A stretch of DNA of 64,000 nt from a plasmid. The translations under genes and the position numbers were made by a program. The stretch's first letter is position 1, and each line of letters opens with the position of its first letter. Below, in pieces: positions 12,775-62,544 of the stretch. The stretch is taken from the sequence record NZ_CP102531.1; one strand, given 5' to 3'. The notes below the pieces were generated by a model. It did no database searches. It was not told where the DNA came from and worked only from the letters and a program-made list of their open reading frames with translations.

Positions 12775-12809
12775 ATCAGTCCCTCCTTTCCATGTCTTTT
12801 ACATCATCA

Positions 12810-13040: not shown

Positions 13041-13057
13041 TATTGATCGCTCCTTTA

Positions 13058-13582: not shown

Positions 13583-13595
13583 CGTCTTCCTCCTT

Positions 13596-18838: not shown

Positions 18839-18855
18839 TGTTACTCACTCCTTTC

Positions 18856-19707: not shown

Positions 19708-19708
19708 A

Positions 19709-19915: not shown

Positions 19916-19932
19916 GTGTTGTTCCTCCTTAT

Positions 19933-22313: not shown

Positions 22314-22322
22314 CTACCCTTT

Positions 22323-23870: not shown

Positions 23871-24136
23871 TAATATGCTTCAACAAATCGCTTAAACTCG
23901 TTCTGAGGGCGAACATAAGCCACGATCACGCGCTCTTTGCTTGGTAACACCCGCACGATCTCACCAATACAAGTTGTATCTGGCAGAATAGGCCAACCGG
24001 TTTCGATACTTAACACGGCATGACGCAACTTCAACATCAATGCCTTCTCCTTTGGGGGTGGGAATCTGATTTCAAGAAGACCATTGTGCCGCTTAGCTTC
24101 CTTGATGTCTTTTGTTTGAAGAACCAAATTGAACAT
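23870..24136 (-). CDS. Hypothetical protein (88 aa), second gene of the tra operon
   Basis: ORF tightly packed with its neighbours. Confidence 0.45.
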   Translation of the reverse strand: MFNLVLQTKDIKEAKRHNGLLEIRFPPPKEKALMLKLRHAVLSIETGWPILPDTTCIGEIVRVLPSKERVIVAYVRPQNEFKRFVEAY

Positions 24137-25828: not shown

Positions 25829-25840
25829 TTGTGAAGTAGT

Positions 25841-26581: not shown

Positions 26582-26611
26582 GATTCAGTTAACTGAACAA
26601 GGAGAAGATAA

Positions 26612-28595: not shown

Positions 28596-28619
28596 ATTAA
28601 ATAGAAGAAGGGTTTTATT

Positions 28620-34920: not shown

Positions 34921-34933
34921 TGTTTAACCTCAC

Positions 34934-44799: not shown

Positions 44800-46533
44800 T
44801 CAAAGATTGGATTCAACAAAATCAAGTGCCTTGTCACCATTGTTGGTTAATTCAATGTATTGCCGACCAGTTGTTGTGACCAGCTTGACGCCATACTTAT
44901 CGGTGATCTTTTTTAAATTACCTTTCATGCTTTCCATTTGCGGCGCAAGGATGACCATGTTCATATCTTTGATCAAATCCATATCCTGTCCATAAGCGCG
45001 GGCGGCGGCCGAGAGCTTTAAACCGCGTTCCTTAGACAGTTTGTTTAGCGCGTTGGCAAGAATACCGCTTGTTCCACCACCAGCACACAACACTAAAACA
45101 TTAACTTCATTTTGTTTGAAATAGGCTTCGCCGTGGGCAGATGGGGCTGTTTCAGGCAACACATGGGTCGCATCGTCGTCTGTGGCAGTCGCAACAGTCA
45201 AACCAGTCGGGATAGAAGGTGACACTGTGTCACTCGCCAGAACAGCCATGCCGTCGTCTTCAATGACCTCTTCCTTAGCTTTTTCTTCAGCTAAGAGTGT
45301 GCTGTCATAAACGCGAATGAATGGGAAGTATATCGCAACGTCCAGAACCAACGTCAGTAGAACAAAGACGAAAGCCAACGGGGCAAACCCAGTCGAAATC
45401 AAAATCCCAATCGGTCCCGGAACTGTCCATGGCATGGTGTACATCATACTGTTCATGCCAAGTACACTCACAAAGAATTTGAATAAGCAAACGTTCACGA
45501 TCGGGGTTGCTAAGAACGGAATGAAGAAAATGGGATTCATGATAATCGGCATTCCGAACAAAACAGGTTCATTGACCCCGAAAGTGCATGGCACAAAGGC
45601 AGCCTTACCAACGGCTTTTAATTGCGCTGATCGGGCCGCAAACAGCATGATGAAAGCTACCACAAATGTTGCTCCGGTTCCACCAAAATTCATGACGTAG
45701 TCCATCGTGTTCATGGCCAAAACGTGCGAGACATGTTGCCCTGCCTGATATTGCTGCAAGTTAGCTGCTGTATTCGCAATCATAATCGGGACAACAGCCG
45801 GCTGAACAATTGATGGGCCTTGGACACCACAGAACCAGAAGAAAGCCATCGCGCCAGCAATCAGGGCTAAGCCTAGATAAGAATCGCTGGCTTGGAAAAG
45901 CGGCGAAAGTACTTGAATGATCCAGCGTGGCAATACAGTACCCGTTGCCGCTTTGAAGCCAACACCGAAAAGCCAGAAGGCTGTCACAGAAAGGCCCATC
46001 GGGATAAGGTCTTTAAATGACTGGGCGATATTACCTGGTACCTGCTCTGGTAATTTAATCGTGACATTGTTCTTAATACAGACGTAGTAAATATTTGGCA
46101 CGATCAACCCAACGATATAAGCGCAGATCAATCCCTGAGTCCCCATGTAAGTCAGGTCAACACCGGTTTTAAGCGGCAAGATCGACAAAATGACAAAAGA
46201 AATTTCAGACGCCACAATGACGGCCACTGGATTAATTTGATTTGTTTTCGGTAATTCAAGGTTCTTGCTGTCAGTCAAGTTTTTACCAGTCGTTCCCGCC
46301 ACAAACAGTGCCAGCAAGCCCATGGAATAGTTATAAGCAACCATCAACGTATTCGTTACGTTGTCTGGCCAGTAAAACCCCCAAGCGTTCGGAACATAAG
46401 CAACCATCATAAAGATACTTGAGAAGATGATGATCGGCATACATGCGATAAAGCCATCACGAATCGCGGAAATATATTTGTTAGCAGCGATGGCTTCAAA
46501 AACCGGTTTTAATTTATCAAAAACCTTATTCAT
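44800..46533 (-). CDS. lacE: PTS lactose-specific EIICB component
   Basis: The track ORF extends to 46617. The ATG at 46533 is preceded by aggagg (MNKVFDKLKPVFEA...). It has a polytopic IIC domain and a C-terminal IIB domain with the catalytic Cys (LVLCAGGGTSG). Confidence 0.75.
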   Translation of the reverse strand: MNKVFDKLKPVFEAIAANKYISAIRDGFIACMPIIIFSSIFMMVAYVPNAWGFYWPDNVTNTLMVAYNYSMGLLALFVAGTTGKNLTDSKNLELPKTNQINPVAVIVASEISFVILSILPLKTGVDLTYMGTQGLICAYIVGLIVPNIYYVCIKNNVTIKLPEQVPGNIAQSFKDLIPMGLSVTAFWLFGVGFKAATGTVLPRWIIQVLSPLFQASDSYLGLALIAGAMAFFWFCGVQGPSIVQPAVVPIMIANTAANLQQYQAGQHVSHVLAMNTMDYVMNFGGTGATFVVAFIMLFAARSAQLKAVGKAAFVPCTFGVNEPVLFGMPIIMNPIFFIPFLATPIVNVCLFKFFVSVLGMNSMMYTMPWTVPGPIGILISTGFAPLAFVFVLLTLVLDVAIYFPFIRVYDSTLLAEEKAKEEVIEDDGMAVLASDTVSPSIPTGLTVATATDDDATHVLPETAPSAHGEAYFKQNEVNVLVLCAGGGTSGILANALNKLSKERGLKLSAAARAYGQDMDLIKDMNMVILAPQMESMKGNLKKITDKYGVKLVTTTGRQYIELTNNGDKALDFVESNL

Positions 46534-46653
46534 GAGTCTTTTCCTCCTGAGCGCTTGGAAGCCAAAGCATAAGCGTGCTTGAAGCAAACTGGCCCAATCT
46601 TTGGTAGATTGCTTCAAAGCCCTTATGTGTAGGCTTCTACGACTGCGAGCGCG
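46534..46653 (-). promoter_or_regulatory. lacT-lacE intergenic leader (expected RAT/terminator site for LacT antitermination)
   Basis: About 120 nt between the lacT stop and the lacE RBS, with imperfect inverted repeats. By analogy with L. casei lacTEGF, where a second RAT-terminator lies here. Confidence 0.35.
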
Positions 46654-47532
46654 TTATAATGAATCGTTTTGTGAATGATTCTGGGCTGGTGCTTCGTTTA
46701 TCAATCGCTGAATGTGGATGATGAAGTAAAGTCGTTCGTCCTCACTCATACTGCGATAGAGTTGATCCTTAATTTCATCGAAAATTTCTGAGGCAATCTT
46801 GTAAGACTGCGGATAGTTTTGCTTAAGTTCAGTGGCAACCTCAGGGACAATGGTAACGGCATATGTATCAACACGCTGCAGTCGGTCGATGAGATACTGG
46901 AGATGAATCATAAATCGGTCATAGTAGTTGCCATTTGAATGAGAGCGAGTAATGTGATGACGCTTCAACACTTCTTGTACAAGTTGACTAAGTGAGGCTT
47001 CATTGCTTTTACCAAAAACCTGCTCGCCATCGTCTTCGCCGGAAGCGTTGATAAAGTGCAACGCCAGATTTTTTATTTCCGACTGTGGAAACTGAACGCC
47101 AAGGTTCGTGGCAATGATTTGCAGTGCCTGTTTAGCCACCGCATATTCGGCCGGATATTGAATATGAAAATCTGGTACCATTGTTTCTTGATAAGTCCCT
47201 GCCTGATAGCGTTTATATGCCTCGTAAATATGATCACTCAAGGTAATGTAGATATAATCAAGCACTTTCAGTCGATATTGTTTCTGGGCAACATCAATAA
47301 TTTCATAGGTAGTCGTCACCACGTCAATCGGAATATTTTTTAAGAGAAAGTACAAATTTTGTCGGGAAGTCTCGTTCGCTAGATAAAAGATCTTCTCTAT
47401 CTGCTTTGTCGGAATAACATCTCCTCGCCTCTTCTGAAAAGCGATGCCACGTCCCCTTACAACGGCTTGGCCGCGGTTGTCTAGATCAACCAAGGCCACG
47501 TTGTTGTTAAAAATCTGAGATATTTTTGGCAA
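46654..47532 (-). CDS. lacT: BglG/LicT-family PRD transcription antiterminator
   Basis: CAT RNA-binding N-domain (ISQIFNNNVALVDLDNRGQAVVRGRGIAFQKRRGD) plus two PRDs. The probable TTG start at 47532 is preceded by GGGAGG. The upstream part of the track ORF is leader sequence. Confidence 0.7.
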   Translation of the reverse strand: MPKISQIFNNNVALVDLDNRGQAVVRGRGIAFQKRRGDVIPTKQIEKIFYLANETSRQNLYFLLKNIPIDVVTTTYEIIDVAQKQYRLKVLDYIYITLSDHIYEAYKRYQAGTYQETMVPDFHIQYPAEYAVAKQALQIIATNLGVQFPQSEIKNLALHFINASGEDDGEQVFGKSNEASLSQLVQEVLKRHHITRSHSNGNYYDRFMIHLQYLIDRLQRVDTYAVTIVPEVATELKQNYPQSYKIASEIFDEIKDQLYRSMSEDERLYFIIHIQRLINEAPAQNHSQNDSL

Positions 47533-47539
47533 GTTGTCA

Positions 47540-47640
47540 TCACCTCCCAGTGCAAAGAAAAAACCACAAATCACGCGCTGCGATCAGCACTGCGATCAGC
47601 ACTGCGATTTGTGGTCTCGCCTAATTAAATAGTCACAATC
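47540..47640 (-). promoter_or_regulatory. lac leader: RAT-like sequence overlapping a rho-independent terminator; contains a 12-bp tandem repeat
   Basis: On the minus strand the hairpin is ccacaaatc[gcagtgctgatcgcagtgctgatcgcagcgcgt]gatttgtgg followed by TTTTTTT, just upstream of the lacT RBS. The loop carries 2.5 copies of tgcgatcagcac. Confidence 0.5.
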
Positions 47641-47668
47641 CACATTGAATATTCCTATCAACAAACAA

Positions 47669-47703
47669 ATTGTACCATATCTGAACAGAATGTAAACGTT
47701 TTA
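47669..47703 (-). promoter_or_regulatory. Candidate lac promoter (TTTACA - 16 nt - TGnTACAAT) with overlapping cre-like box TGTAAACGTTTTAT
   Basis: Reverse-complement reads acgTTTACAttctgttcagatatggTACAAT. The cre consensus TGWAANCGNTNWCA is matched at 12 of 14 positions, overlapping the -35. Confidence 0.35.
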
Positions 47704-47878
47704 TTTTATTTTTTGTAGCATCTTTAGTTTGCTGTTCTTTTTTCTTTTTCAACAGTGTCCATCCAGCAAGCCATCGTCAGTTTTTTAGGACAATTATCTG
47801 TGTTGCCTTTTGTTCTTTAATGATCAGTGCTAGTCATGTCTCTACAAACGAATCACTTTATTTGACGCCTCCGTTAAT

Positions 47879-48188
47879 TTGACGATAATGATCAAAACGA
47901 GCTTCAAGGAGGCAATTACGTCGAACTTAGATTTAACCATCGTTGTGCCAACTTACAATTTAGGTCATTATCTGCCTGAGACATTAAAAAGTATCCAGCA
48001 ACAAACAATTGATTTTGAACTTTGGCTCATCGACGATGCCTCTACTGATGGTACCGCTCAGACAGTGGCTGATTTTGTTAAAGGTATCCCTAATTTTCAC
48101 GCGACCGGTTTTAATGACCATCGTGGCATCGGTGCTGCGCGAAACTTTGGCATTGATCATGCCACTGGTCAAGCTGTGGCGTTTGTTG
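47879..48188 (+). pseudogene. 5' fragment of a family-2 glycosyltransferase gene truncated by IS5 copy B3
   Basis: The GT2 N-terminus (TIVVPTYNLGHYLPETLKSIQQQT...WLIDDASTDGT) reads straight into the IS5 IR at 48189. Confidence 0.6.
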
Positions 48189-48197
48189 AGAACCTGT

Positions 48198-48668
48198 CTA
48201 GCATCTTTTAAGAACTATGTTCAAGAAGGCCAATACAACCATTTGAAGACTGCTGTTAAGGGCACGTTCACAGTTTTTCCAAAGTCGCCGACATTTGTCT
48301 AGCCAACTCCATGAACGTTCAACGATCCATCGTTGCGGTAACACCGTGAACATATGCAACTCGTTGCGTTTAGCTACCGTCGTCTTAGCATTCAAAATGA
48401 GCTTCACCTGATCCGCAAAGTCATTGCCAGTGTAGCCACCATCAACCATGACATGCTGAACCAGCTCTAAATTTTGGCTAGCCAAACTAAGCATAGCCAA
48501 TGCACCTGAACGATCTGATACATTAGCTCGTGTCACGAGAATGGCTTGTGGTAAACCGTTAATATCAACCGCCATATGACGCTTAATCTCTGAAATCTTT
48601 TTGCCGCCATCGTAGCCACTATTTTTCGTTAAATCAGTGGTTTTAACACTTTGAGCATCAATAATCAC
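48198..48668 (-). CDS. IS5-family transposase OrfB
   Basis: As the other copies. Confidence 0.75.
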
Positions 48669-48985
48669 AAACGACGTTCGGGCCGATCGGCCCTGTGCAA
48701 AACGATAGGAAGCGACAGTTTTTTTAAAAGCCTTTCTAATAGCGAATCAGCTGTCGGGTCTGGTTTATCTCGCCACATATCGTAATAGCGGTAGACAGTG
48801 TGCCATTCTGGGAAATCGTGCGGTAATTCACGCCATTGACACCCTGTAGTAAGCGAGTAAAGGATGGCATTGAATACGTCATAAAGATCATAACGACGCG
48901 GTCTTGTATGCTTGCGGAAGTTTTCTAAATCAGGTTGTATTAACGCAAATTGCGCTCGAGAAATATTGCTTGGATAATCTGGCAT
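48665..48985 (-). CDS. IS5-family transposase OrfA
   Basis: As the other copies. Confidence 0.75.
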
Positions 48986-49046
48986 GACAAACTCCTCAGT
49001 CGGTTTTCCACAATTCTACCAGATTCAGCAGATACTAGACAGGTTC

Positions 49047-49331
49047 TTAAAGAGTTGCTTTCAATTGATCTAATCGCCATTGGCACCATGAAATAAAGGC
49101 TAATTCGTCAATCTTTGGAATGCCATAGGTTCTAGCATACGTTAACTTTTGAGTGGTAAGTAGTTGATCATAGGGTTTGCTAATAATACCAACCACAAGG
49201 ATATCGACATTTTTGTCAATCCCGTTGACAGGTTTTGCTCCTAGAATAGTTGCTAACTGTTGTGCCTGGAAACGACGAAAAGATCGCAAACGGCCGGTAA
49301 AGAGAATTCGTTTGCCCCTTAAATCTATCAT
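49047..49331 (-). CDS. Stand-alone BRCT-domain protein (94 aa); its stop codon overlaps the IS5 terminus
   Basis: GKRILFTGRL...LVVG...GIPKIDELAFISW is a BRCT-like pattern. The last base of the IS forms part of the stop, so the C-terminus is possibly truncated. Confidence 0.4.
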   Translation of the reverse strand: MIDLRGKRILFTGRLRSFRRFQAQQLATILGAKPVNGIDKNVDILVVGIISKPYDQLLTTQKLTYARTYGIPKIDELAFISWCQWRLDQLKATL

Positions 49332-51400: not shown

Positions 51401-52640
51401 ATCCATCTTTTTAGACTTACGTCCTAAACGTGGTCCCGACAACCTAATGCCTAGTCGTTGACAGTGGTAGCCCAGTGAACTATGAATTCTCTTCCTATTG
51501 TAGAAAGCATGCACATATTCAAAAAGGACGGCAGCGGCAGTTTCATAATCTTCAAAGACCGGCACTGGATAAACACATTCCTTTTTGAGGGAAGCGTGAA
51601 AGGATTCCATTGGCGCATTATCATACGGACAACCCTTACGGCTGTATGAGTGCGGATATGTAGTTCAGTTAAACGTTGATTGTAATTATCGCTGGTATAC
51701 TGTGATCCTAAATCCGTATGGATAATCAGGTCCCCAGTAATGGTTCGATTTTTAACCGCGCTTTCAAGGGTCTTTAAGACTAAATCAGTAGCCATCTTTT
51801 TTGAGAACGAATAGCCGATAATCCGTCGTGAGTGCAGGTCCATGATGGTTGATAAGTAACACCAGCCATTACGCTTCGTTTGAATATAGGTCATATCAGC
51901 GGTCCATTTTTGATTTAAACCAGTGGTCGAGAAATCCTGCTTAAGCAAGTTGGGACGCTGTTCAACCTTGGTTTTGGAAGCCGAAGCCGCTTTCCACTTA
52001 TTGACGGTACCGGAGTGGATATCCAGTTCCTTCATGAGCCGGGAAATCCGTCGTGGACTGCACCGAAGCTGCAGTGGTTGAAGTTCCAGATTCAATTCAT
52101 GGTGGCTCTTCATAACACCGTATCGCTGCTTAAATTCCGCAAAGATCCGCAGAATCAGTTGTTTCAAGTCCGCATCTTCGGCCCGTCGTTTTCAAGGTTT
52201 GGGGGATCGATAACGATAATACTGAGCTCTGGAAACACCGAGGATTCGGCACATCTTGGTTACCTGGTGGTGATGGCTTTCTTGGTGAATGTAATCAAAG
52301 ATATTGGTTACTTCTGCGCAAGGAAGTGCAGGGCTTTTTTTAGGATTTCGTTCTCCTCAGACAGCGAAGCCAGTCGCTTTTCCATCGCTTTTATTCCGTC
52401 TGGCGATTTACCGGATTGATTTTTGGCCTGGCCCTGGATCCACTTATGAACTGTTGAATAGCCAATGCCATATTCTCTGGCTAGTTGGGCAGCTGATTCG
52501 CCTTGCTTATATAGGTTGATAATGTTTTGTTTGAATTCTTTGTCGTAACGAGTTGGCATGTAAAAATTCCTTCCTTTTGAGAGACGATTTATTCATTATA
52601 CCCTCTCTTAAAAGTTGTCTCAGGAATCAGCTTACATCCA
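51400..52640 (-). mobile_element. Degenerate IS3-family element (orfA intact; orfB interrupted by an in-frame stop and frameshifts)
   Basis: OrfA (52308-52559, HTH + leucine zipper) is intact. The OrfB region has an in-frame TGA near 52191 (..YRYRSPKP*KRRAEDADLKQ..). The DDE core (HTDLGSQYTS) is present, but the C-terminal part shifts frame at about 51451-51610. Boundaries are approximate. Confidence 0.55.
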
Positions 52641-52883
52641 GGAAGTACGTCGAATTCTTAAGAAACCCATAGTTTACTGTTAACGCCATTACTTCAAGCG
52701 TGTCGACTTTTGACACGCTTTTTTTATGCTATTGGATACAAATCATTCAATAAAAATGAAGTATCAAAAAAGACGGCTTCCACTATGGAAAGTCGTCTCC
52801 GATGAACCTGGTTTTCTAATAATCATTCATGTCGCATCGTCTCGCTACAAAAGTATTCAGTATCGAAATTTGTGACATATACC

Positions 52884-55800
52884 TTATTGACGTTCTCGTC
52901 TGTAAGGTTTGAAAAAGCTATAAACGAATAAGCCAAGAACCGAAAGTATCCCAATCAGTGTCATGCCAACGTTATTGACATCTCCTGTATTTGGCATTTT
53001 TTGACCATTGCCGTGATTGTCATTGGTGTTTGGTGGTGTACTCTTCTTAAAGTTCTTCGCCACAACCACAGCCGATTCATTATTGAGTTGAAGCTTGACC
53101 GTAAACGATATTTTTTCGTTACTCAGTTTATAACCAGCTGGTGCTGCTGTTTCAACAAAGTAGTAGTCGCCTGGCTTCAAATCATTGACTTGGATCTGGC
53201 CTTTAGCATCTGTCGTCAAACCGCTAGCGATCTTAGTGCCATTCTTCTTGTACAGATCGAACACTGCACCAGCAAGAGTTTTACCAGTATCGCCGTCTGT
53301 CTTGTTCAAAACAACTGAACCCGTCTTCTCGGCATTTGTTGCAGAAACGGTCGCAACTTTGGTTGTGGTTTGTAATTCAACCGTGAAGTTCAGCTTACTA
53401 TCATTTAGTTCATAGCCAGCTGGCGCTGCTGTTTCGACAAAGTAGTAGTCGCCTGGCTTCAAATCATTGACCTTGATTTGACCCTTAGCATCTGTCGTTA
53501 AACCGCTAGCGATCTTAGTGCCATTCTTCTTATACAGATCAAATACTGCACCAGCAAGAGTTTTACCAGTATCACTATCCGTCTTGTTCAAAACAACTGA
53601 ACCCGTCTTCTCGGCATTTGTTGCAGAAACGGTCGCAACCTTGGTTGTGGTTTGTAACTCGACCGTGAAGTTCAGCTTACTATCATTTAGTTCATAGCCA
53701 GCTGGTGCTGCTGTTTCGACAAAGTAGTAGTCGCCTGGCTTCAAGTCATTGACCTGGATTTGACCCTTAGCATCTGTGGTCAAACCACTAGCAAGCTTTG
53801 TGCCGTCCTTCTTATACAGATCAAATACTGCACCAGCAAGAGTTTTACCAGTATCACTATCCGTCTTGTTCAAGACAACTGAGCCAGTCTTCTCAGCATT
53901 TGTTGCAGAAACGGTCGCAACTTTGGCTGTGGTTTGTAATTCAACCGTGAAGTTCAGCTTACTGTCATTTAGTTCATAGCCAGCTGGCGCTGCTGTTTCG
54001 ACAAAGTAGTAGTCGCTTGGCTTCAAATCATTGACCTTGATTTGACCCTTAGCATCTGTGGTCAAACCACTAGCAACCTTAGTCCCATCCTTCTTATACA
54101 GATCAAATACTGCACCAGCAAGAGTTTTACCAGTATCACTATCCGTCTTGTTCAAGACAACTGAGCCAGTCTTCTCAGCATTTGTTGCAGAAACGGTCGC
54201 AACTTTGGCTGTGGTTTGTAATTCAACCGTGAAGTTCAGCTTACTGTCATTTAGTTCATAGCCAGCTGGCGCTGCTGTTTCGACAAAGTAGTAGTCGCCT
54301 GGCTTCAAATCATTGACCTTGATTTGACCCTTAGCATCTGTCATCAAACCGCTAGCGATCTTAGTACCGTCCTTCTTATAAAGATCGAACACGGCACCGG
54401 AAAGAGCTTTACCAGTATCACTATCCGTCTTGTTCAAAACAACTGAGCCAGTCTTCTCAGCATTTGTTGCAGAAACGGTCGCAACTTTGGCTGTGGTTTG
54501 TAATTCAACCGTGAAGTTCAGCTTACTGTCATTTAGTTCATAGCCAGCTGGCGCTGCTGTTTCGACAAAGTAGTAGTCGCCTGGCTTCAAATCATTGACC
54601 TTGATTTGACCCTTAGCATCTGTCGTCAAACCGCTAGCGATCTTAGTACCGTCTTTCTTATAAAGATCGAATACTGCACCAGCAAGAGTTTTACCAGTAT
54701 CGCCGTCGGTCTTGTTCAAAACAACTGAACCAGTCTTCTCAGCATTCGTTGCCGAGACGGTCGCAACCTTGGTTGTTTCCTGAAATTCAACCGTGAAGTT
54801 CAGCTTACTGTTGTTCAATTGATAACCAGCTGGCGCTGTTGTTTCGATAAAGTAGTAGTCACCTGGCTTCAAGTCATTGACCTTGATTTGACCCTTAGCA
54901 TCTGTGGTCAAACCACTAGCAACCTTAGTCCCATCCTTCTTATACAGATCAAATACTGCACCAGAAAGAGTTTTACCAGTATCACTATCCGTCTTGTTCA
55001 AGACACCTGAGCCAGTCTTCTCAGCATTTGTTGCAGAAACGGTCGCAACTTTGGCTGTGGTTTGTAATTCAACCGTGAAGTTCAGCTTACTGTCATTTAG
55101 TTCATAGCCAGCTGGCGCTGCTGTTTCGACAAAGTAGTAGTCGCCTGGCTTCAAGTCATTGACCTGGATTTGACCCTTAGCATCTGTGGTCAAACCGCTA
55201 GCGATCTTAGTACCGTCTTTCTTATAAAGATCGAATACTGCACCAGCAAGAGTTTTACCAGTATCGCCGTCGGTCTTGTTCAAAACAACTGAACCAGTCT
55301 TCTCAGCATTCGTTGCCGAGACGGTCGCAACCTTGGTTGTTTCCTGAAATTCAACCGTGAAGTTCAGCTTACTGTTGTTCAATTGATAACCAGCTGGCGC
55401 TGTTGTTTCGATAAAGTAGTAGTCACCTGGCTTCAAGTCATTGACCTTGATTTGACCCTTAGCATCTGTGGTCAAACCACTAGCAACCTTAGTCCCATCC
55501 TTCTTATACAGATCAAATACTGCACCAGAAAGAGTTTTACCAGTATCACTATCCGTCTTGTTCAAGACAACTGAGCCAGTCTTCTCAGCATTTGTTGCAG
55601 AAACGGTCGCAACTTTGGCTGTGGTTTGTAATTCAACCGTGAAGTTCAATTTACTGTCGTTTAGTTCATAACCAGCTGGTGCTGCTGTTTCGACAAAGTA
55701 GTAGTCGCTTGGCTTCAAATCATTGACCTTGATTTGACCCTTAGCATCTGTGGTCAAACCACTAGCAACCTTAGTCCCATCCTTCTTATACAGATCAAAT

Positions 55801-58800
55801 ACTGCACCAGCAAGAGTTTTACCAGTATCACTATCCGTCTTGTTCAAGACAACTGAGCCAGTCTTCTCAGCATTTGTTGCAGAAACGGTCGCAACTTTGG
55901 CTGTGGTTTGTAATTCAACCGTGAAGTTCAGCTTACTGTCATTTAGTTCATAGCCAGCTGGCGCTGCTGTTTCGACAAAGTAGTAGTCGCCTGGCTTCAA
56001 ATCATTGACCTTGATTTGACCCTTAGCATCTGTCATCAAACCGCTAGCGATCTTAGTACCGTCCTTCTTATAAAGATCGAACACGGCACCGGAAAGAGCT
56101 TTACCAGTATCACTATCCGTCTTGTTCAAAACAACTGAGCCAGTCTTCTCAGCATTTGTTGCAGAAACGGTCGCAACTTTGGCTGTGGTTTGTAATTCAA
56201 CCGTGAAGTTCAGCTTACTGTCATTTAGTTCATAGCCAGCTGGCGCTGCTGTTTCGACAAAGTAGTAGTCGCCTGGCTTCAAATCATTGACCTTGATTTG
56301 ACCCTTAGCATCTGTCATCAAACCGCTAGCGATCTTAGTACCGTCCTTCTTATAAAGATCGAACACGGCACCGGAAAGAGCTTTACCAGTATCACTATCC
56401 GTCTTGTTCAAAACAACTGAGCCAGTCTTCTCAGCATTTGTTGCAGAAACGGTCGCAACTTTGGCTGTGGTTTGTAATTCAACCGTGAAGTTCAGCTTAC
56501 TGTCATTTAGTTCATAGCCAGCTGGCGCTGCTGTTTCGACAAAGTAGTAGTCGCCTGGCTTCAAATCATTGACCTTGATTTGACCCTTAGCATCTGTCGT
56601 CAAACCGCTAGCGATCTTAGTACCGTCTTTCTTATAAAGATCGAATACTGCACCAGCAAGAGTTTTACCAGTATCGCCGTCGGTCTTGTTCAAAACAACT
56701 GAACCAGTCTTCTCAGCATTCGTTGCCGAGACGGTCGCAACCTTGGTTGTTTCCTGAAATTCAACCGTGAAGTTCAGCTTACTGTTGTTCAATTGATAAC
56801 CAGCTGGCGCTGTTGTTTCGATAAAGTAGTAGTCACCTGGCTTCAAGTCATTGACCTTGATTTGACCTTTAGCATCTGTCGTCAAACCACTAGCAAGCTT
56901 TGTGCCGTCCTTCTTATACAGATCGAACACGGCACCGGAAAGAACTTTACCAGTATCACCATCTGTCTTTGTTAGAAGAACGCTCCCTAATGCTTTATCA
57001 TTTGTGACTGGAACTTTTAATTGAATACTATCGCTATTAATTGTAAAGGCATGCTGAATATCATCTAGCTTATATCCATCAGGTGCCTTTGTTTCGATAA
57101 TATAATAGTCTCCAGCATTAAGACCGGTATAACTTACAGTGCCATCTAATCCCGTCTTAAGATTCGAAGCAACCTTAGTCCCGTCTTTCTTATAAAGATC
57201 AAATATTGCTCCAGCTAAAGGACTTGAGTTATCAGCATCAGACTTTTCAATCGTGACCTTACCTTTTTGATTAGTGGCAGAAACCAAGACATTATTATCA
57301 GCATTTGCTTCTTTATACTGAAGATTGATTTCTTTTCCATTTGTCAAACTGGTAGAAATCACATAGCCATCTGGGGCCTTTGTTTCAACTAAAATGTATT
57401 TTCCAGATTTAAGATTATTCCATGTGATACTGCCTGCAGCATCCGTTGTCCCTGTACGAAGCTTCTGCCCTTTTTGTCCGGAAACATCCGACCAAAGTTC
57501 AAAAGAAGCTCCAGCAATTGACTTTTTGGTGTCAGCATCACTCTTGGTAAGAACGATATTGGTGTTCTTACCCGTTGCCGATCCGTAGTTGTTTACTACT
57601 TGTGTCGATCCGTTGGTATTGTTATCAACATCCTTTTCGCCCTTGCCTGATATCGATGCTGTGTTTGTCAACGTATCATTAATTTTTGACGAATTGATCA
57701 GTGAACGATAATGAATCGAGTAAGCCGAACTAATTTCCTTTGCAAAGGAAATCTTCATCGTTTGCTTACCAGTTACATTATCAGTTTGCAGATCCACAGA
57801 GTAATCCTTACCAAGTACTAATGGATTACTCGTATCTTCAGTAAAGTCACCATTAGCAGCGACCTTCCCTGGATAGATCACAATAGAGCTTTCGCCAATA
57901 ATTTGATTGTCAGAAGGCTCATCGGTAACAACTGCATCGCTGAAAGTTGACTGTGCTTTATTGACCCATATCGTCCACAATGCATAAGCAGAGTTCGTTG
58001 GGTCTTGTTTGCCACTTTTATCCAGAACATTGCCACTGTATGGCACTGTCACCTTAGCCGTCAAATCACTAGATTTTTTGTTATTTGTATAGGTCGCTGT
58101 ATTGTCATACGACTTTTGATCAATGACCTTACCAGAGAGACTAGTTTGGTAAGTCAAGACATAAGCCTTAGAACTATCATTTGGTAATTTAGCAGTAAGC
58201 TGTTTCTTAGTACTGTCAAAGGAAATATTAGCGGAAGCAACTTGTGTTCCCAAAATATATGAGCCATTTGTGTTAATAGAAGCTTCATACAACTTGGCGC
58301 TACCTGCTACATAGTCTTGGTCACCAATAATTGGATCAGTAATAGAGGCATTGCTAAGTTTACGTTGATTATAGTTAGCAACCACGGTCCAAGTAATTTG
58401 TTTAGAAACAGCATTATAACTCCCCGACTTGCTGCCATCATTTTTAAACTCAGTCTTAGGGGTGAAGTCTGCCTGTCCCTTATTTGTATGATCTTGGCCG
58501 TCTTTATCAGTCCAAGTTGCCGTAGCAGTGTTAGTCCACTTACCCCCATTCGGAAGGCTATTCGTTTCAAAGTCAGTTTTATAACTCAGAGTATACCAAC
58601 TTGTAGCATGCTTTTTTAAAGCATTAGCGAAGGATATGGTAAAACCGTTCCCTTGCTTGCTAATCACATAGTCCGTTCCTTCAGTGAGGGTTGTATTATG
58701 ATCTTTATCTTTCAGAACAAAGGAATCATAATCTACAGTCAGCCCATCCGGGACTGGATCGGTCATTGACCAATTGCTCATATTTTGGCGGGCCATATTG

Positions 58801-60749
58801 ATATCAAAGTTCCATGTAACAGTCTTAGCATTATAGTCAACGCTACCGAGGGACTTAGTTAGTCCCTGCTGTCCGACTGAATTATTTTCAGAATTAGAGG
58901 TTTGGCCGTTGCTATCTACCCTGTTACTAATCTTTTGGCCTTTATCACCAATTGGGTCTGTTACTTGTGACTGATATGAAATTTTGACTCCCTTGTTCAG
59001 CCCATTGGGGAAAACAATAGTCATTTCAGTTCTATCAACATTGTAAGTTACTTTATAGTCATCAGTACTGATAGGCGTACCAGCCTCATCAACTAATGAA
59101 AGCTTATTGTCCTCCGGGAATGTTTGGCCCGTTGATAACGTATCTACCAACTTAGTATTGGCAGAAAGTGTCTTTTCGCCATAATTGTAATAAATATGCC
59201 AATTATACTTTTGACTACCATTCTTATCCTGACCGTCAAAACTCTTGTTTAAAAGTTTCCCGTAGTTAGCCTTTACTGTCGCACTAGCTGGAGAGTCTTT
59301 ATCACCGTTAGTTAAGGTAGCATTGTTCGTAAAGGTTAAGATTCCGCCATTATCTGGTAATTTACTCGAATCGATGTCGCTAGTGTATGCAATCTTAAAA
59401 GCCTGATAGGTATCTGCATATGCACCAACAAATGTGATTTTTCCATTTTCAACCTTGTAATCCGTACCTTCTTTAAGGGGATCGCCAGTTTTAGTCACAT
59501 TCCCCTTCAGATTAACTGTCAAGGGATATACACTAACCGATTTCAGCGTGGTCGGCACAGTGTTGGTAGTATCACTTGGCATTGGATCAGAAATTGTTGC
59601 ATTCTTTAGCTCTTTACCATTGGTATTAATTGTGACGTTCCACGTAATCCCTGTTGGGTTATTTCCAGATGTGTTAGCCCCGGTTAGTTGGCCAGTTTTA
59701 GCAATATCATTGCCACCTGATGGATGGACAACAATCGGTATTTCAACAGGACCGCTTGTCTTATCAATTTTAATTGTATCTTTGCCAGATGATGAATCAC
59801 TACTAATAGTAGCGGTGTACCCAAATGTTCCTTCAATATTGTTCACACTTTCAACATTGCTATTAAAGATGAACTTAACTGTGCCATCAGCAGCTATGCT
59901 ATAAGTTCCATAGTCATCAAGAGTTCCCGTACCTGGTTTATAGGTAATTCCTTCGGGTAACTTAAATGAGAAATAGTCACCATCTTTAAGCTGATACCCA
60001 TCTTTCATATCATTCGGAATTGCCCACGTATATTGAAAATTAAGATTGGTATCTTTTGTCACTTGTGTGCGATCAACAGTATGACCATCGCTATCTGTGA
60101 ATTCAATCTTTGCTCCAGTAATGATTGTCCCTTTGGAGTCATCTGGCAAATACTTTGAAATATCATTGCCCTCAGTACTCTTAGAAACTGCCTTTTCACC
60201 TTGGCTTGTCGCCGTAACACTAGGCGCAGCTTTGCTGCTAGCATTGGTCGAAGGCTTATCAGCTTTTGTTTTCTCAATAGAATCAGTCAGCTTTGCAACA
60301 ACATTTTGACTATCCGTCGAAAAATTGACAGATCCTTCTAAGGATGAAGCCTCCGTGAGACTTAGTTGGATAGTTGCTGTGCCAGAAACATTACCTAAAA
60401 CCTCTAACTCTAATTTGTTGGCCGAATAGGTATATTTCCCGACAACTTTTTGATTGGCATCAAGAATATTAGAATTGCTCGTATCTTTCAGTTGCTGATT
60501 GTTAGAAACAGATACTGAAACTTCCTTATGAATACTTTCATCTGTTGAATTATTTAATGAAAGCTTCAGGTCAATGTTCCGTGATCCAGCAGCTTCTTGA
60601 GTTGCCCCTAGAAGTTGAACCTCTGTCGAATGATCGGCCGCACTGGGGCTAGATGTAACGGCTCCTACAACTTGAGCTGATGATTGTAAGAACAGCAAAA
60701 AAATCAGAACCAAAGAATATATTTGCTGTCCTATTTTCTTCTTGTTCAT
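52884..60749 (-). CDS. Giant cell-wall-anchored adhesin (2621 aa): signal peptide, about 1000-aa non-repetitive N-terminal region, about 16 Cna-B-type 94-aa repeats, C-terminal sorting signal with MPNTG motif
   Basis: The N-terminal signal peptide is MNKKKIGQQIYSLVLIFLLFLQSSAQVVGA. The repeats read TGSVVLNKTD(S/G)DTGK(T/A)L(A/S)GAVFDLYKKDGTK(V/I/L)ASGL(T/M)TDAKGQI(K/Q)VNDLKPGDYYF(V/I)ET(A/T)APAGY(E/Q)LN(D/N)SKLNFTVE(L/F)Q(T/E)T(A/T)KVATVSATNAEK. The C-terminus has ..QKMPNTGD, a hydrophobic stretch and KPYRRERQ. Confidence 0.8.
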   Translation of the reverse strand: MNKKKIGQQIYSLVLIFLLFLQSSAQVVGAVTSSPSAADHSTEVQLLGATQEAAGSRNIDLKLSLNNSTDESIHKEVSVSVSNNQQLKDTSNSNILDANQKVVGKYTYSANKLELEVLGNVSGTATIQLSLTEASSLEGSVNFSTDSQNVVAKLTDSIEKTKADKPSTNASSKAAPSVTATSQGEKAVSKSTEGNDISKYLPDDSKGTIITGAKIEFTDSDGHTVDRTQVTKDTNLNFQYTWAIPNDMKDGYQLKDGDYFSFKLPEGITYKPGTGTLDDYGTYSIAADGTVKFIFNSNVESVNNIEGTFGYTATISSDSSSGKDTIKIDKTSGPVEIPIVVHPSGGNDIAKTGQLTGANTSGNNPTGITWNVTINTNGKELKNATISDPMPSDTTNTVPTTLKSVSVYPLTVNLKGNVTKTGDPLKEGTDYKVENGKITFVGAYADTYQAFKIAYTSDIDSSKLPDNGGILTFTNNATLTNGDKDSPASATVKANYGKLLNKSFDGQDKNGSQKYNWHIYYNYGEKTLSANTKLVDTLSTGQTFPEDNKLSLVDEAGTPISTDDYKVTYNVDRTEMTIVFPNGLNKGVKISYQSQVTDPIGDKGQKISNRVDSNGQTSNSENNSVGQQGLTKSLGSVDYNAKTVTWNFDINMARQNMSNWSMTDPVPDGLTVDYDSFVLKDKDHNTTLTEGTDYVISKQGNGFTISFANALKKHATSWYTLSYKTDFETNSLPNGGKWTNTATATWTDKDGQDHTNKGQADFTPKTEFKNDGSKSGSYNAVSKQITWTVVANYNQRKLSNASITDPIIGDQDYVAGSAKLYEASINTNGSYILGTQVASANISFDSTKKQLTAKLPNDSSKAYVLTYQTSLSGKVIDQKSYDNTATYTNNKKSSDLTAKVTVPYSGNVLDKSGKQDPTNSAYALWTIWVNKAQSTFSDAVVTDEPSDNQIIGESSIVIYPGKVAANGDFTEDTSNPLVLGKDYSVDLQTDNVTGKQTMKISFAKEISSAYSIHYRSLINSSKINDTLTNTASISGKGEKDVDNNTNGSTQVVNNYGSATGKNTNIVLTKSDADTKKSIAGASFELWSDVSGQKGQKLRTGTTDAAGSITWNNLKSGKYILVETKAPDGYVISTSLTNGKEINLQYKEANADNNVLVSATNQKGKVTIEKSDADNSSPLAGAIFDLYKKDGTKVASNLKTGLDGTVSYTGLNAGDYYIIETKAPDGYKLDDIQHAFTINSDSIQLKVPVTNDKALGSVLLTKTDGDTGKVLSGAVFDLYKKDGTKLASGLTTDAKGQIKVNDLKPGDYYFIETTAPAGYQLNNSKLNFTVEFQETTKVATVSATNAEKTGSVVLNKTDGDTGKTLAGAVFDLYKKDGTKIASGLTTDAKGQIKVNDLKPGDYYFVETAAPAGYELNDSKLNFTVELQTTAKVATVSATNAEKTGSVVLNKTDSDTGKALSGAVFDLYKKDGTKIASGLMTDAKGQIKVNDLKPGDYYFVETAAPAGYELNDSKLNFTVELQTTAKVATVSATNAEKTGSVVLNKTDSDTGKALSGAVFDLYKKDGTKIASGLMTDAKGQIKVNDLKPGDYYFVETAAPAGYELNDSKLNFTVELQTTAKVATVSATNAEKTGSVVLNKTDSDTGKTLAGAVFDLYKKDGTKVASGLTTDAKGQIKVNDLKPSDYYFVETAAPAGYELNDSKLNFTVELQTTAKVATVSATNAEKTGSVVLNKTDSDTGKTLSGAVFDLYKKDGTKVASGLTTDAKGQIKVNDLKPGDYYFIETTAPAGYQLNNSKLNFTVEFQETTKVATVSATNAEKTGSVVLNKTDGDTGKTLAGAVFDLYKKDGTKIASGLTTDAKGQIQVNDLKPGDYYFVETAAPAGYELNDSKLNFTVELQTTAKVATVSATNAEKTGSGVLNKTDSDTGKTLSGAVFDLYKKDGTKVASGLTTDAKGQIKVNDLKPGDYYFIETTAPAGYQLNNSKLNFTVEFQETTKVATVSATNAEKTGSVVLNKTDGDTGKTLAGAVFDLYKKDGTKIASGLTTDAKGQIKVNDLKPGDYYFVETAAPAGYELNDSKLNFTVELQTTAKVATVSATNAEKTGSVVLNKTDSDTGKALSGAVFDLYKKDGTKIASGLMTDAKGQIKVNDLKPGDYYFVETAAPAGYELNDSKLNFTVELQTTAKVATVSATNAEKTGSVVLNKTDSDTGKTLAGAVFDLYKKDGTKVASGLTTDAKGQIKVNDLKPSDYYFVETAAPAGYELNDSKLNFTVELQTTAKVATVSATNAEKTGSVVLNKTDSDTGKTLAGAVFDLYKKDGTKLASGLTTDAKGQIQVNDLKPGDYYFVETAAPAGYELNDSKLNFTVELQTTTKVATVSATNAEKTGSVVLNKTDSDTGKTLAGAVFDLYKKNGTKIASGLTTDAKGQIKVNDLKPGDYYFVETAAPAGYELNDSKLNFTVELQTTTKVATVSATNAEKTGSVVLNKTDGDTGKTLAGAVFDLYKKNGTKIASGLTTDAKGQIQVNDLKPGDYYFVETAAPAGYKLSNEKISFTVKLQLNNESAVVVAKNFKKSTPPNTNDNHGNGQKMPNTGDVNNVGMTLIGILSVLGLFVYSFFKPYRRERQ
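53040..57000. repeat. About 14 near-identical tandem 282-bp repeats (with flanking, more divergent copies) encoding the Cna-B domain array
   Basis: Identical antisense ORFs recur at 53776, 54058, 54904, 55468 and 55750, all multiples of 282 bp apart. Long stretches of DNA are identical between units. Confidence 0.8.
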
Positions 60750-61226
60750 AGTTTACCTCTATTTCGAAATAGTCAATTTTTATTTTTTGAACCCAATTTT
60801 AACAAATAAAGTTTGCCCCTCTCCTTTCTAAAAAAACATATATATGTATCCTATAAGTCGTGGATTCAGTCACAACTCGAAAGATTTAAGCTATAGGTTA
60901 CACATGTTAAATATACAACAATTTTGCTTATACTAATAGTTATTATCGGGTCTAGAATTTTTGGTGTTGGAAAGTATTTCCATTCCAAAAGTACTAGGCC
61001 CTTTTTGATAACAAAAAAAGGCATCTAAGCCTCCCTAGTGCTATGATTTAAGCGGGGTAGGAATAGATGTCTCAACTAGATAATACACTTAAATTACTGC
61101 CTCAATTTTCAAGTCAAGTGCAACGATGATAACGAATTCTTGATAGTGGTCTAGGCTGTTAGGGTCTGTACTAGAATTTCGGACAGAAACATAAGAGAAT
61201 TGATTTATCCGAAAGGAGTCCTCAAA

Positions 61227-61508
61227 ATGACCTATTCACGCAATCGCTACGACCAAGATTTTAAGAAAAATGCGGTACATTTGAGTTTTAACTCTTCCAA
61301 ACCAGTTAAAATCATTGCCTCCGAACTTGGTGTTCCTGAAAGTGCCCTGTATCGTTGGCGGAAGCTATATACCGAAGATGGAAAGCAAACACCGTTTGCT
61401 TCTTTAGAAGCTGAGAACCGTGCCTTAAAACGTGAAAATGCCGAATTAGCATTGGAGCGTGATATGTTAAAAAAAGCCGCCGCCTACTTTGCCAGTCTCC
61501 AGAAGTAA
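61227..61508 (+). CDS. IS3-family transposase OrfA
   Basis: RBS aaaggag. MTYSRNRYDQDFKKNAVHL... has an HTH and a leucine zipper (ENRALKRENAELALERDMLKK). Confidence 0.7.
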   Translation: MTYSRNRYDQDFKKNAVHLSFNSSKPVKIIASELGVPESALYRWRKLYTEDGKQTPFASLEAENRALKRENAELALERDMLKKAAAYFASLQK

Positions 61509-61531
61509 CCCCCAGCGATAAGTATGCTTTT

Positions 61532-62389
61532 ATGTTGAGGGAAACCTCTGTTTCTGTGGTAAGGTGGGCGCGTTTGTTAGACGTATCAACGAGTGGTTAT
61601 TATGCTTGGCGGAGAGCTTTGCCAAAGCGAAACGCCAAAGAAAGGCAATATCGTCAACGAATCAAACACTTTTTTGATCAAGGACAGGGCACTTACGGGC
61701 CCAAACGCATCTGCGGTTTATTGCGTAAAAATGGTAATAAAGCTTCCTATCACCGAGTTGCCCGTCTGATGGCTGATGCCGGTCTGTATTCAACGCTACG
61801 TTGTCGTCATCCGAAGAGTTTGACCGATAGCCGCCTTGCTCGTCAAGGTGATTATCCCAATCTAGTGAAACACCAATCTTTTAAGCCGTTTGAAGCCTTA
61901 TCAAGTGACATTACACAGACGACAACATCAGAAGGAAAAGCTTACATTTGCCAAATAAGGGATTTGAACAGCAACCTAGTGTTAGCTCATCAAATATCCA
62001 ATCATATGGACACGGATTTAGTCTTAGCGACACTTAAACAAGCCCACCAAAGGTGGGCTTTGCCAGAAACGTGTATTTTTCATAGTGACCGTGGTAGCCA
62101 ATACACGGCCAAAGAAGTGACAAAGTTGGTCAACCAATATCATTGGCAACGTAGCTTCTCAGCATTGGGAAAACCGGGTGATAACGCTTGGAGCGAAAGC
62201 TTCTTTGCCATCATGAAGAAAGAGCTCATTTATCAGATACAATTTAAAGATATCAATGAACTGAGAGCGCAAGTCTTCGCTTACATCGAGACCTTTTACA
62301 ACCGCGTAAGGGTACAAGCACGCTTAGACTATCTTGCACCAGTAGCATGGCTTTCCTTGTATGACCAAGCTTCACAAAAAGTCGCTTAG
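61532..62389 (+). CDS. IS3-family transposase OrfB (DDE integrase core)
   Basis: HSDRGSQYTAKEV...DNAWSESFF motifs. Probably expressed by -1 frameshift fusion with OrfA. Confidence 0.7.
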   Translation: MLRETSVSVVRWARLLDVSTSGYYAWRRALPKRNAKERQYRQRIKHFFDQGQGTYGPKRICGLLRKNGNKASYHRVARLMADAGLYSTLRCRHPKSLTDSRLARQGDYPNLVKHQSFKPFEALSSDITQTTTSEGKAYICQIRDLNSNLVLAHQISNHMDTDLVLATLKQAHQRWALPETCIFHSDRGSQYTAKEVTKLVNQYHWQRSFSALGKPGDNAWSESFFAIMKKELIYQIQFKDINELRAQVFAYIETFYNRVRVQARLDYLAPVAWLSLYDQASQKVA

Positions 62390-62456
62390 CAAACTGTCCG
62401 AAAAAGTGTTGACTTCCCTGTCGTCAGGGTGTTGCACTTGAATTGTAAACTGGGGA

Positions 62457-62544
62457 GAAATATTGCTTGGATAATCTGGCATGACAAACTCCTCAGTCGG
62501 TTTTCCACAATTCTACCAGATTCAGCAGATACTAGACAGGTTCT
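62457..62544 (-). mobile_element. Solo terminal fragment (about 88 bp) of the IS5-family element, abutting the IS3
   Basis: atattgcttggataatctggcatgacaaactcctcagtcggttttccacaattctaccagattcagcagatactagacaggttct is identical to the orfA-proximal end of copies B1-B3. It includes the IR and the first codons of orfA in reverse-complement. Confidence 0.6.

Follow-up and report, generated by a model that had tools for sequence, protein, structure and literature searches.

Identity of the gene

A 64,000-nucleotide stretch of plasmid DNA (record NZ_CP102531.1; here called the window) carries on its minus strand a 2621-aa open reading frame dominated by near-identical 282-bp repeats and ending in an unusual MPNTG sorting motif, and the question raised by this locus is what the protein is, how its repeats and its anchor should be read, and whether the repeat number in the assembly can be relied upon. 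The frame is almost certainly an intact allele of aggLb, encoding AggLb, the auto-aggregation and collagen- and fibronectin-binding factor of Lacticaseibacillus paracasei. The gene is therefore already known, having been published and experimentally tested in strain BGNJ1-64 (plasmid pNJ1, HG008907.2; Miljkovic et al., 2015, PMC4425601; 2016, PMC5014864). The features of the locus are as follows.

51451–52559, minus: IS3-family element on the 3' flank (orfA 52308–52559; DDE orfB 51451–52167), from sequence and annotation
52696–52720, strand not assigned: terminator-like palindromic hairpin (11-bp stem) with T-run, downstream of the stop codon; called on the plus strand, the stem being symmetric
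52884–60749, minus: aggLb allele, 2621 aa (279 kDa), ATG start; exact protein WP_240578199.1
52887–52910, minus: positively charged tail KPYRRERQ, aa 2614–2621, from sequence
52911–52970, minus: hydrophobic membrane-spanning stretch, aa 2594–2613, from sequence; Gram_pos_anchor (PF00746) on the tail
52983–52997, minus: MPNTG sorting pentapeptide, aa 2585–2589, codons ATG CCA AAT ACA GGA, from sequence
53055–57002, minus: stalk array of 14 in-register 282-bp/94-aa CnaB-type units, R3–R16, aa 1250–2565, by dissection
57003–57578, minus: two divergent CnaB-type (Pfam SpaA, PF17802) domains, R1 and R2, aa 1058–1249, by Pfam and dissection
57609–60125, minus: six divergent Ig-like 'collagen-binding' domains, aa 209–1047, by Pfam and model; the published functional region
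60174–60281, minus: Ser/Thr/Ala/Lys-rich linker, aa ~157–192, predicted to be disordered (pLDDT about 24)
60285–60626, minus: N-terminal tip domain, aa ~42–155, beta-sandwich predicted with confidence, lacking any Pfam match
60660–60749, minus: signal peptide, aa 1–30 (MNKKKIGQQIYSLVLIFLLFLQSSAQVVGA), from sequence
60756–60760, minus: ribosome-binding site AGAGG, 6 nt upstream of the ATG, read from sequence
61200–62389, plus: IS3-like ISL1 transposase on the 5' flank, from sequence and annotation

Identity with aggLb (HG008907.2) was established indirectly, through the published primers, the published repeat unit and shared relatives. All six published primers match with no mismatches at their published positions (pairs at 80–99/668–687, 2112–2131/2867–2886 and 7356–7372/7800–7814 of the gene, 7356 being 8484 minus 1128), the published 94-aa unit occurs exactly at three places (aa 1443, 1537 and 2101), and the published gene (8994 bp) exceeds that of the window (7866 bp) by exactly 4 × 282 bp. 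Over its first 4523 bp aggLb shares 99% identity with the genes of W56, LC2W and BD-II (PMC4425601), and the records of these three are 100% identical to the window between 57000 and 62500. Threonine content (12.2%), lysine content (10.2%) and unit mass (9.909 kDa) agree with the AggLb values (PMC4425601; PMC5014864), and the protein has the leader peptide, the six collagen-binding-type domains, the two divergent and many near-identical 94-aa repeats and the C-terminal anchor of AggLb. N-terminal domain coordinates are alike in the two proteins, the repeats begin at aa 1255 in both, and each gene is plasmid-borne between transposase genes. The alleles differ in the number of near-identical units, 14 in the window (2621 aa) versus 18 in BGNJ1-64 (2998 aa), and in the order of unit variants inside the array, published aggLb containing two perfect repeats of 1196 bp and the window no exact run above 737 bp.

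The N-terminal head

AggLb causes strong cell-cell clumping and auto-aggregation (PMC4425601); in the published experiments both this activity and the binding of collagen and fibronectin work through the N-terminal Ig-like 'collagen-binding' domains, and the CnaB array serves as a stalk that can be dispensed with (PMC4425601; PMC5014864). The 14-unit allele would be expected to aggregate and to bind collagen and fibronectin likewise, the function being carried over from the 18-unit allele of BGNJ1-64. Its N-terminus comprises MNKKK and a hydrophobic core, with a cleavage region of AQVVGA type, and cleavage of the AggLb signal peptide has been predicted between residues 30 and 31 (PMC4425601).

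A preliminary description of the locus had regarded the N-terminal ~1000 aa as unique and probably ligand-binding. Ligand binding is borne out by the deletions reported for this gene (PMC5014864), but the region is composite, consisting of the tip beta-sandwich, the linker and the six Ig-like domains rather than of one unique domain. These six are one Big_8 domain followed by five of Collagen_bind type (PF05737), four of which exceed the Pfam threshold (59.5, 43.9, 62.2 and 61.9 bits) and one of which falls below it (20.7 bits); the whole architecture by Pfam is SpaA ×16, Collagen_bind, Big_8 and Gram_pos_anchor. A sequence search of the PDB with the N-terminal 1028 aa returned nothing at E ≤ 0.01, so that a fold search was needed. 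The AlphaFold2 model of aa 31–1058 is all-beta (pLDDT 87.6), and its Foldseek matches, which include Cna, Cnm, SdrD, ClfB and SdrE, are generic Ig-string and MSCRAMM structures with TM-scores kept low by the multi-domain geometry. The combination of Collagen_bind Ig-like A-region domains with CnaB-type B repeats is that of MSCRAMM/Cna-type proteins.

Cna of Staphylococcus aureus and Cnm of Streptococcus mutans (PDB: 2F6A, 2F68, 8JL8) share with AggLb the order of PF05737 Ig-like domains, B-repeat stalk and wall anchor, and match its head by Foldseek with E of about 1e-10 to 1e-11, although sequence identity is only 14–16%. AggLb differs from both in having six tandem divergent domains rather than an N1N2 pair, and strong homotypic aggregation as its main phenotype. 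Closer in sequence is AggL of Lactococcus lactis BGKP1 (P0050, 'aggregation promoting factor'), which, with its enterococcal and lactococcal relatives, is 43–45% identical over 97% of the N-terminal region. AggL is likewise plasmid-borne, drives aggregation, and has a signal peptide, Ig-like collagen-binding domains, a CnaB-type stalk and a sorting signal; unlike AggLb it is 1774 aa long, its stalk domains are of Cna_B (PF05738) type and not near-identical, and its anchor reads LPKTS. An AggL/AggLb hybrid is non-functional (PMC5014864).

The repeat array

Tandem Repeats Finder reports a period of 282 bp, 13.6 copies and 92% matches at 53125–56969 (score 6234, far beyond chance), and manual dissection and Pfam (SpaA, PF17802) both give 16 CnaB-type domains in total. 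The array of near-identical Cna-B repeats noted at the outset is therefore real, but the 'about 15' copies resolve into 14 near-identical units and two diverged domains (R1, aa 1058–1157; R2, aa 1158–1249). Near-identity of the DNA likewise holds for subsets of the units (R4=R11; R5=R6=R12; R8 and R10 one nucleotide apart) and not for all pairs, which range from 70.6 to 100% identity with a mean of 89%, rising to 93% among the inner units R4–R15; the first and last units of the array are the most divergent. With an offset of seven units, stretches of up to 737 bp are exactly repeated, and the units form an ordered mosaic of ten protein variants.

The unit matches BcpA, 8BDW and the parent domain of SpyCatcher. 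With the last of these it shares 42% identity, and the reactive Lys and catalytic Glu of that domain fall opposite K7 (VVLNK) and E57 (FVETAAP) of the unit when the numbering offset is derived from the SpyTag Asp; the last strand of the unit has an Asn (SATN). The structural matches of the unit, together with the Pfam matches of the head, the 16 SpaA domains and a TIGR01167 match, uphold the original view of a 2621-aa sortase-type surface adhesin with a CnaB stalk.

Complete alleles differ from that of the window by whole 94-aa units (5, 6, 7, 9, 10, 11 or 12 fewer, or 4 more), spanning 2 to 18 units. The comparison shows an array that gains and loses whole 282-bp units to give size-variable alleles, to judge from the sequences by in-register homologous recombination, and with the identical units and exact runs it supports the recent multi-unit duplications proposed earlier. 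Bap of S. aureus, Esp and the alpha C/Rib family also have long DNA-identical tandem arrays whose copy number varies by recombination; their repeat folds and heads are unrelated to those of AggLb, and the likeness is one of analogy only.

Could the count of 14 be an artefact of assembly, the true number in the plasmid being different or heterogeneous? The identical units and the longest exact repeats are beyond short-read resolution, and the shortest alleles, of two or three units, lie in older records on near-identical plasmid backbones, which means either that some assemblies of the locus are wrong or that the locus changes very fast. However, collapse makes arrays shorter, never longer, and the array of the window is in frame, an exact multiple of 282 bp, and an ordered mosaic of variants as opposed to a consensus smear. 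The same count of 14 is seen in the independent record pFAM18149.25, whose interior units are different, and the 18 units of BGNJ1-64 were confirmed by restriction mapping and hybridisation (PMC4425601). We consider an artefactual count in the window improbable. The concern over assembly collapse applies instead to the older, shorter records: a repeat number of 2 to 18 among near-identical plasmids makes collapsed versions likely in older reference plasmids, and pBD-II, pLC2W, pW56 and pACT may be such cases, the window having a long form.

The MPNTG sorting signal

The protein ends in GNGQK-MPNTG-DVNN-VGMTLIGILSVLGLFVYSFF-KPYRRERQ, and so has, with the signal peptide, the hydrophobic stretch and positively charged tail of a sortase substrate; relative to LPXTG the P, T and G are kept and position 1 is Met. 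The AggLb papers name the anchor 'LPXTG', with no remark on the Met (PMC4425601; PMC5014864). The motif and the segments that follow it stand as first described, being seen in the translation and in seven independent plasmid records. A sequencing error is ruled out since MPNTG is common to all seven, including a 90%-identical allele with differing flanking residues (EMPNTGDANNIG). Among Lacticaseibacillus orthologues the pentapeptide is MPNTG or MPATG, and one of them, P0009, has LPATG, in a tail that is in all other residues the same as in P0008, an MPATG orthologue.

A full-text literature search for MPNTG, MPxTG and similar strings gave a single match, the MPQTG anchor recorded for L. paracasei CnbB (Smokvina et al., 2013, PMC3716772). 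This 'collagen-binding protein' (their Table 2) resembles AggLb by description, as a putatively plasmid-encoded CnaB-domain surface protein with a Met-first anchor, but is only about 750 aa long with three or four CnaB domains. A protein search with the 55-aa C-terminal tail for other MPxTG-bearing proteins recovered just two fragments of aggLb itself, and a separate literature search on sortase tolerance of Met at position 1 yielded only a review lacking such data.

The preliminary description had also raised the prospect of a dedicated sortase accepting MPxTG. A TLxTC scan of the open reading frames found no sortase in the window, the annotation of pBD-II lists none, and an 11.4-kb clone with only aggLb and transposases is enough to make Lactococcus lactis and Enterococcus faecalis aggregate, both of them hosts expected to lack a Lacticaseibacillus-specific sortase (PMC4425601); the idea of such an enzyme encoded alongside aggLb is thus not upheld. 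The same clone bears on a broader proposal, that MPNTG is not a substrate of the housekeeping sortase, leaving the protein membrane-tethered or partly released, or dependent on a specialised chromosomal sortase. In its favour are the Met itself, whose conservation across the clade could reflect co-adaptation with a particular sortase, the several sortases of L. paracasei (srtC1 and srtC2 are named in PMC3716772), and a whole-protein PF00746 score below the gathering threshold (18.2 vs 20). On the 64-aa tail alone, however, PF00746 is passed (25.0 vs 20), as is the TIGR01167 cut-off (19.8 vs 15.9), and Leu and Met have exchanged between the orthologues whose tails otherwise agree. Partial tolerance of Met at position 1 has reportedly been seen in peptide-library work with S. 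aureus SrtA, which we also count against this proposal. We therefore think it quite unlikely that MPNTG escapes the housekeeping enzyme.

Plasmid context and alternative roles

The window is collinear with plasmid pBD-II, and WP_240578199.1 is encoded on a 66,795-bp plasmid contig; the plasmid is conjugative and of pBD-II type, with aggLb flanked on both sides by IS3-family elements. This setting bears on two other readings of the protein. Its NCBI name, 'SpaA isopeptide-forming pilin-related protein', together with a match to NF033902 ('SpaH/EbpB family major pilin'), would make it a sortase-polymerised pilin subunit, and there are indeed 16 E-box-like YxxxETxAPxGY motifs and an NF033902 score of 448.8 bits. 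That score, however, accrues from 16 partial matches confined to the repeated CnaB domain, the YPK pilin motif is absent from the entire protein, neither a class C sortase nor further pilin genes are present in the window or on pBD-II, and in the published work one gene is by itself responsible for the phenotype (PMC4425601). We regard the pilin reading as ruled out, its probability being close to nil.

Alternatively, the chief selected role of AggLb could be to form mating aggregates for its conjugative plasmid, in the manner of enterococcal aggregation substance or lactococcal CluA, adhesion to host matrix being secondary. A full MOBP/MPF_T transfer region (relaxase, VirD4-like, VirB4-like, PrgI, PcfB, CHAP) occupies ~6–24 kb of the window, and the strong clumping caused by AggLb (PMC4425601) would suit such a role. 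Yet about 29 kb separate aggLb, a cargo module flanked by IS elements, from the transfer operon, and the gene is found also on the merely mobilizable plasmids pLC2W, pFAM18149.25 and pMGB0625-1, so we judge mating aggregation unlikely as the principal function.

Model and significance

In the adhesin model that we favour, AggLb would be exported by its Sec signal peptide and anchored at the cell surface by an LPXTG-class sorting signal with Met first, cleavage and wall linkage being most likely the work of the host housekeeping class A sortase. Its 16 CnaB-type domains, which include the 14 near-identical units of 94 aa and which probably, by homology, contain internal Lys-Asn isopeptide bonds, would form a rigid stalk holding out the head of six divergent Ig-like 'collagen-binding' domains and tip beta-sandwich.

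The significance of the identification is mainly for annotation and strain characterisation: despite the characterised identity of AggLb, the gene stands in public records as a 'hypothetical protein' or under the SpaA name given above. Minor but previously unreported is the reading of the AggLb anchor as MPNTG rather than LPXTG, with the Met at position 1 conserved in the clade. More speculatively, and with little confidence, Met-first signals (MPNTG, MPATG, MPQTG) may be a functional, clade-specific variant of Lacticaseibacillus plasmid adhesins, and, as a separate matter, AggLb may double as a mating-aggregation factor on pBD-II-type conjugative plasmids. If the former holds, Met-first signals might tune the efficiency or choice of sortase, and thereby how AggLb is divided among wall-anchored, membrane-held and released forms.

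Identity of the adhesin gene

The window carries, on the minus strand at 52884–60749, a single open reading frame of 2621 aa. Its product matches the Pfam SpaA/prealbumin-fold (CnaB-type) domain 16 times, together with Collagen_bind, Big_8 and Gram_pos_anchor, and scores above the NCBIfam TIGR01167 cut-off. DNA searches identify the window as a Lacticaseibacillus paracasei plasmid of the pBD-II/pW56/pLC2W/pACT type, and the exact protein match, WP_240578199.1, is carried by a 66,795-bp plasmid contig. Among the BLASTP matches to the N-terminal 1029 aa was the 'aggregation promoting factor' AggL of Lactococcus lactis BGKP1 (44% identity), which led to the AggLb literature. Judged by sequence, the window holds another allele of the aggLb described in L. 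paracasei BGNJ1-64 (PMC4425601). The published 94-aa unit (PMC4425601) is found exactly at aa 1443, 1537 and 2101, and six diagnostic primers (S1 Table) match with zero mismatches, 6/6 at the published coordinates, with the third pair displaced by exactly 1128 bp. The length gap between the published and window genes is the same (8994 bp − 7866 bp = 1128 = 4 × 282). The first 4523 bp of aggLb share 99% identity with the W56, LC2W and BD-II genes (PMC4425601), and these three records are 100% identical to window 57000–62500. The two proteins also begin their repeats at the same residue (aa 1255), are alike in Thr and Lys content, and have units of closely similar mass (9.909 kDa in the window, 9.916 kDa published). 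All testable defining features of aggLb are present, and the gene is already known under that name.

In work on the published 18-unit allele, aggregation was lost when the gene was deleted, and cells aggregated more, became more hydrophobic and bound more collagen when it was overexpressed; Lactococcus lactis and Enterococcus faecalis both gained aggregation from an 11.4-kb clone whose only genes were aggLb and three for transposases (PMC4425601). Domain deletions showed that strong aggregation and collagen/fibronectin binding need the N-terminal collagen-binding-type domains, especially II–IV; the 18 CnaB-like repeats are dispensable, with an 'antenna' role, and shortened variants shift to biofilm formation (PMC5014864).

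Structure of the repeat array

Tandem Repeats Finder reports one array (53125–56969; period 282 bp, 13.6 copies, 92% matches, score 6234). Dissection anchored on the conserved GAxFxL motif resolves 16 CnaB-type domains, numbered from the N-terminal side.

CnaB-type domains of window AggLb (minus strand)
aa 1058–1157: R1, divergent domain
aa 1158–1249: R2, divergent domain
aa 1250–2565 (window 53055–57002): R3–R16, 14 units each exactly 94 aa / 282 bp

The preliminary description was right about the array but not about its count of about 15 near-identical repeats: there are 14 units and two divergent domains. DNA identity between unit pairs runs from 70.6% to 100% (mean 89%), the inner units R4–R15 averaging 93% and the terminal ones being the most divergent. 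R4 is identical to R11, R5 to R6 and R12, and R8 is one base from R10; blocks R4–R7 and R11–R13 have an exact 737-bp run in common, and R8–R9 and R10–R11 share 381 bp. Most of the changes that separate one unit from another are synonymous (mean pS 0.28, pN 0.055). On this evidence the array consists of older unit lineages, kept under purifying selection and rearranged into a mosaic by recent duplications of several units at a time; it is not the product of one-step expansion from a single unit.

Allele length and assembly

Complete alleles depart from the window allele in whole 94-aa steps, having 5, 6, 7, 9, 10, 11 or 12 units fewer, or, in BGNJ1-64, 4 more.

Unit typing of other alleles
pACT: 2 units, only R3 and R16
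pBD-II and pLC2W: 3 units, R3-like, R15-like and R16
pMGB0625-1: 9 units, diverged
pFAM18149.25: 14 units, interior units different

The window and pBD-II are otherwise collinear, with 9 mismatches in 36.9 kb, the sole differences being an insert of 6.3 kb and 11 more units in the window; pBD-II (57,362 bp) plus about 6.3 kb and 3.1 kb gives approximately the 66.8-kb contig carrying WP_240578199.1. With 2, 3 or 14 units on backbones that are nearly the same, either the arrays of older records are collapsed or recombination is very fast. The 14-unit count of the window is plausible: the reading frame is kept, the units make up an ordered mosaic, and an independent record also has 14; for the 18-unit allele, hybridisation confirmed the count (PMC4425601). 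That independent record, pFAM18149.25 (NZ_CP017266.1, 4185–11147), has interior units 5–14 nt from any window unit (53055–57002), and agreement in length but not in content points to gene conversion or to arrays with separate histories. Its aggLb is 5'-truncated at about window coordinate 59944. In the N1115 plasmid (NZ_CP007124.1), across the record origin, aggLb is broken within the array into frames of 1496 aa and 337 aa, which reflects either a pseudogene with a frameshift or misassembly of the repeats.

Head and stalk

The N-terminal ~1000 aa, previously described as unique, comprise several domains rather than one. Pfam gives no match at aa 31–208, followed by Big_8 and five Collagen_bind-type domains, four of the five above threshold. 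Modelled with AlphaFold2 from 30 homologues, aa 31–1058 are all-beta with mean pLDDT 87.6, and after a linker show a string of Ig-like domains.

Predicted features of the tip (minus strand)
aa ~42–155 (window 60285–60626): confidently predicted beta-sandwich, pLDDT 82–91, no Pfam match
aa ~157–192: predicted disordered Ser/Thr-rich linker between tip and rest of head

Published domain maps begin at aa 209, beyond the tip domain. Foldseek against the PDB returns strings of alpha-2-macroglobulin MG domains, and MSCRAMMs of Gram-positive bacteria (SdrD, Cnm, Cna, ClfB, SdrE, UafA and the SspB/SpaP C-terminal domains); the beads-on-a-string geometry keeps the TM-scores low.

For the repeat unit, the matches are BcpA, 8BDW and the SpyCatcher parent CnaB2 domain. 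When the unit is aligned with the last of these (42% identity), its K7 (VVLNK) and E57 (FVETAAP) lie opposite the reactive Lys and catalytic Glu, and the last strand holds an Asn, which makes internal isopeptide bonds plausible.

Sorting signal

The C-terminus reads ...GNGQK MPNTG DVNN VGMTLIGILSVLGLFVYSFF KPYRRERQ. The non-canonical MPNTG in place of LPxTG is genuine: seven plasmid records read the same, among them pMGB0625-1, a 90%-identical allele with different flanking residues. Among homologues, MPNTG occurs in L. nasuensis, L. salsurivasis and L. paracasei plasmid alleles, and MPATG in L. yichunensis, L. porcinae and Lapidilactobacillus luobeiensis; the L. kribbianus tail departs from the MPATG one only in reading LPATG, and more distant relatives have LPKTG, LPKTS, LPATG, LPQTG, LPHTG or LPNTG. 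Leu and Met thus interchange at the first position among close orthologues. A change of TTG or CTG to ATG takes one base. The isolated 64-aa tail passes Pfam Gram_pos_anchor (25.0, threshold 20). No sortase gene was found in the window or on pBD-II, which gives a dedicated MPxTG enzyme no support, and aggLb works alone in other genera. The most economical reading is that MPNTG is a tolerated variant and a putative substrate of housekeeping sortase A. The AggLb papers name the motif LPXTG (PMC4425601, PMC5014864), and a full-text literature search found no mention of MPNTG; an 'MPQTG anchor' was tabulated earlier for CnbB, another CnaB protein of L. paracasei and putatively plasmid-encoded (PMC3716772).

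Other plasmid cargo

The 6.3-kb segment without counterpart in pBD-II (42157–48473) looks like a composite-transposon-like lactose module.

Features of the lac and lar segments and the restriction-modification locus
41579–42435 and 48193–49047: inverted IS5-family copies bracketing the lac segment
43349–44773: lacG, 6-phospho-beta-galactosidase
44800–46617: lacE, lactose PTS EIICB
46654–47574: lacT
25083–25766 and 29787–30470: IS6 copies either side of the lar cluster
33304–34920: HsdM
34934–38101: HsdR

The nickel-pincer cofactor/lactate racemase accessory cluster (25083–29450) holds larB, larC, larD and larE, and no larA; larC is a single 420-aa ORF matching the LarC1 and LarC2 models, annotated as two CDSs in pBD-II. 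In the type I restriction-modification locus (32681–38101), a 208-aa ORF (32681–33307) without an NCBIfam match adjoins HsdM and an IS5 element, and the locus may lack all or part of its specificity subunit. Cysteine synthase, a cystathionine lyase-type PLP enzyme and serine O-acetyltransferase (cysK-ctl-cysE type) lie at 38845–41485. A 228-bp hypothetical ORF of pBD-II (54404–54631) is tagged 'APH(2'')-Ie, identity 100%' by PLSDB/RGI, probably a spurious resistance call because an aminoglycoside phosphotransferase would need a far longer ORF; its window counterpart should lie near 2277–2504.

A complete Gram-positive conjugation region (~6000–23900), matching the pBD-II annotation, encodes relaxase, MobC, an ArdC-like protein, a CHAP-domain hydrolase, VirB4-like, PrgI, VirD4-like and PcfB proteins. 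The 515-aa Ig-like-domain protein at its head (22323–23870) could be a transfer-associated surface adhesin.

Relation to known adhesins

The pilin reading implied by the NCBI name is rejected, there being no YPK motif in the protein and no class C sortase in the window or on pBD-II. AggLb acts in the manner of a Cna-type MSCRAMM on a CnaB stalk, but its head has six domains in tandem and its homotypic aggregation is strong. The remaining interest is modest, and lies in the probable array collapse in several reference plasmids, in a Met-first anchor conserved within a clade and, speculatively, in a link between AggLb and conjugative mating.
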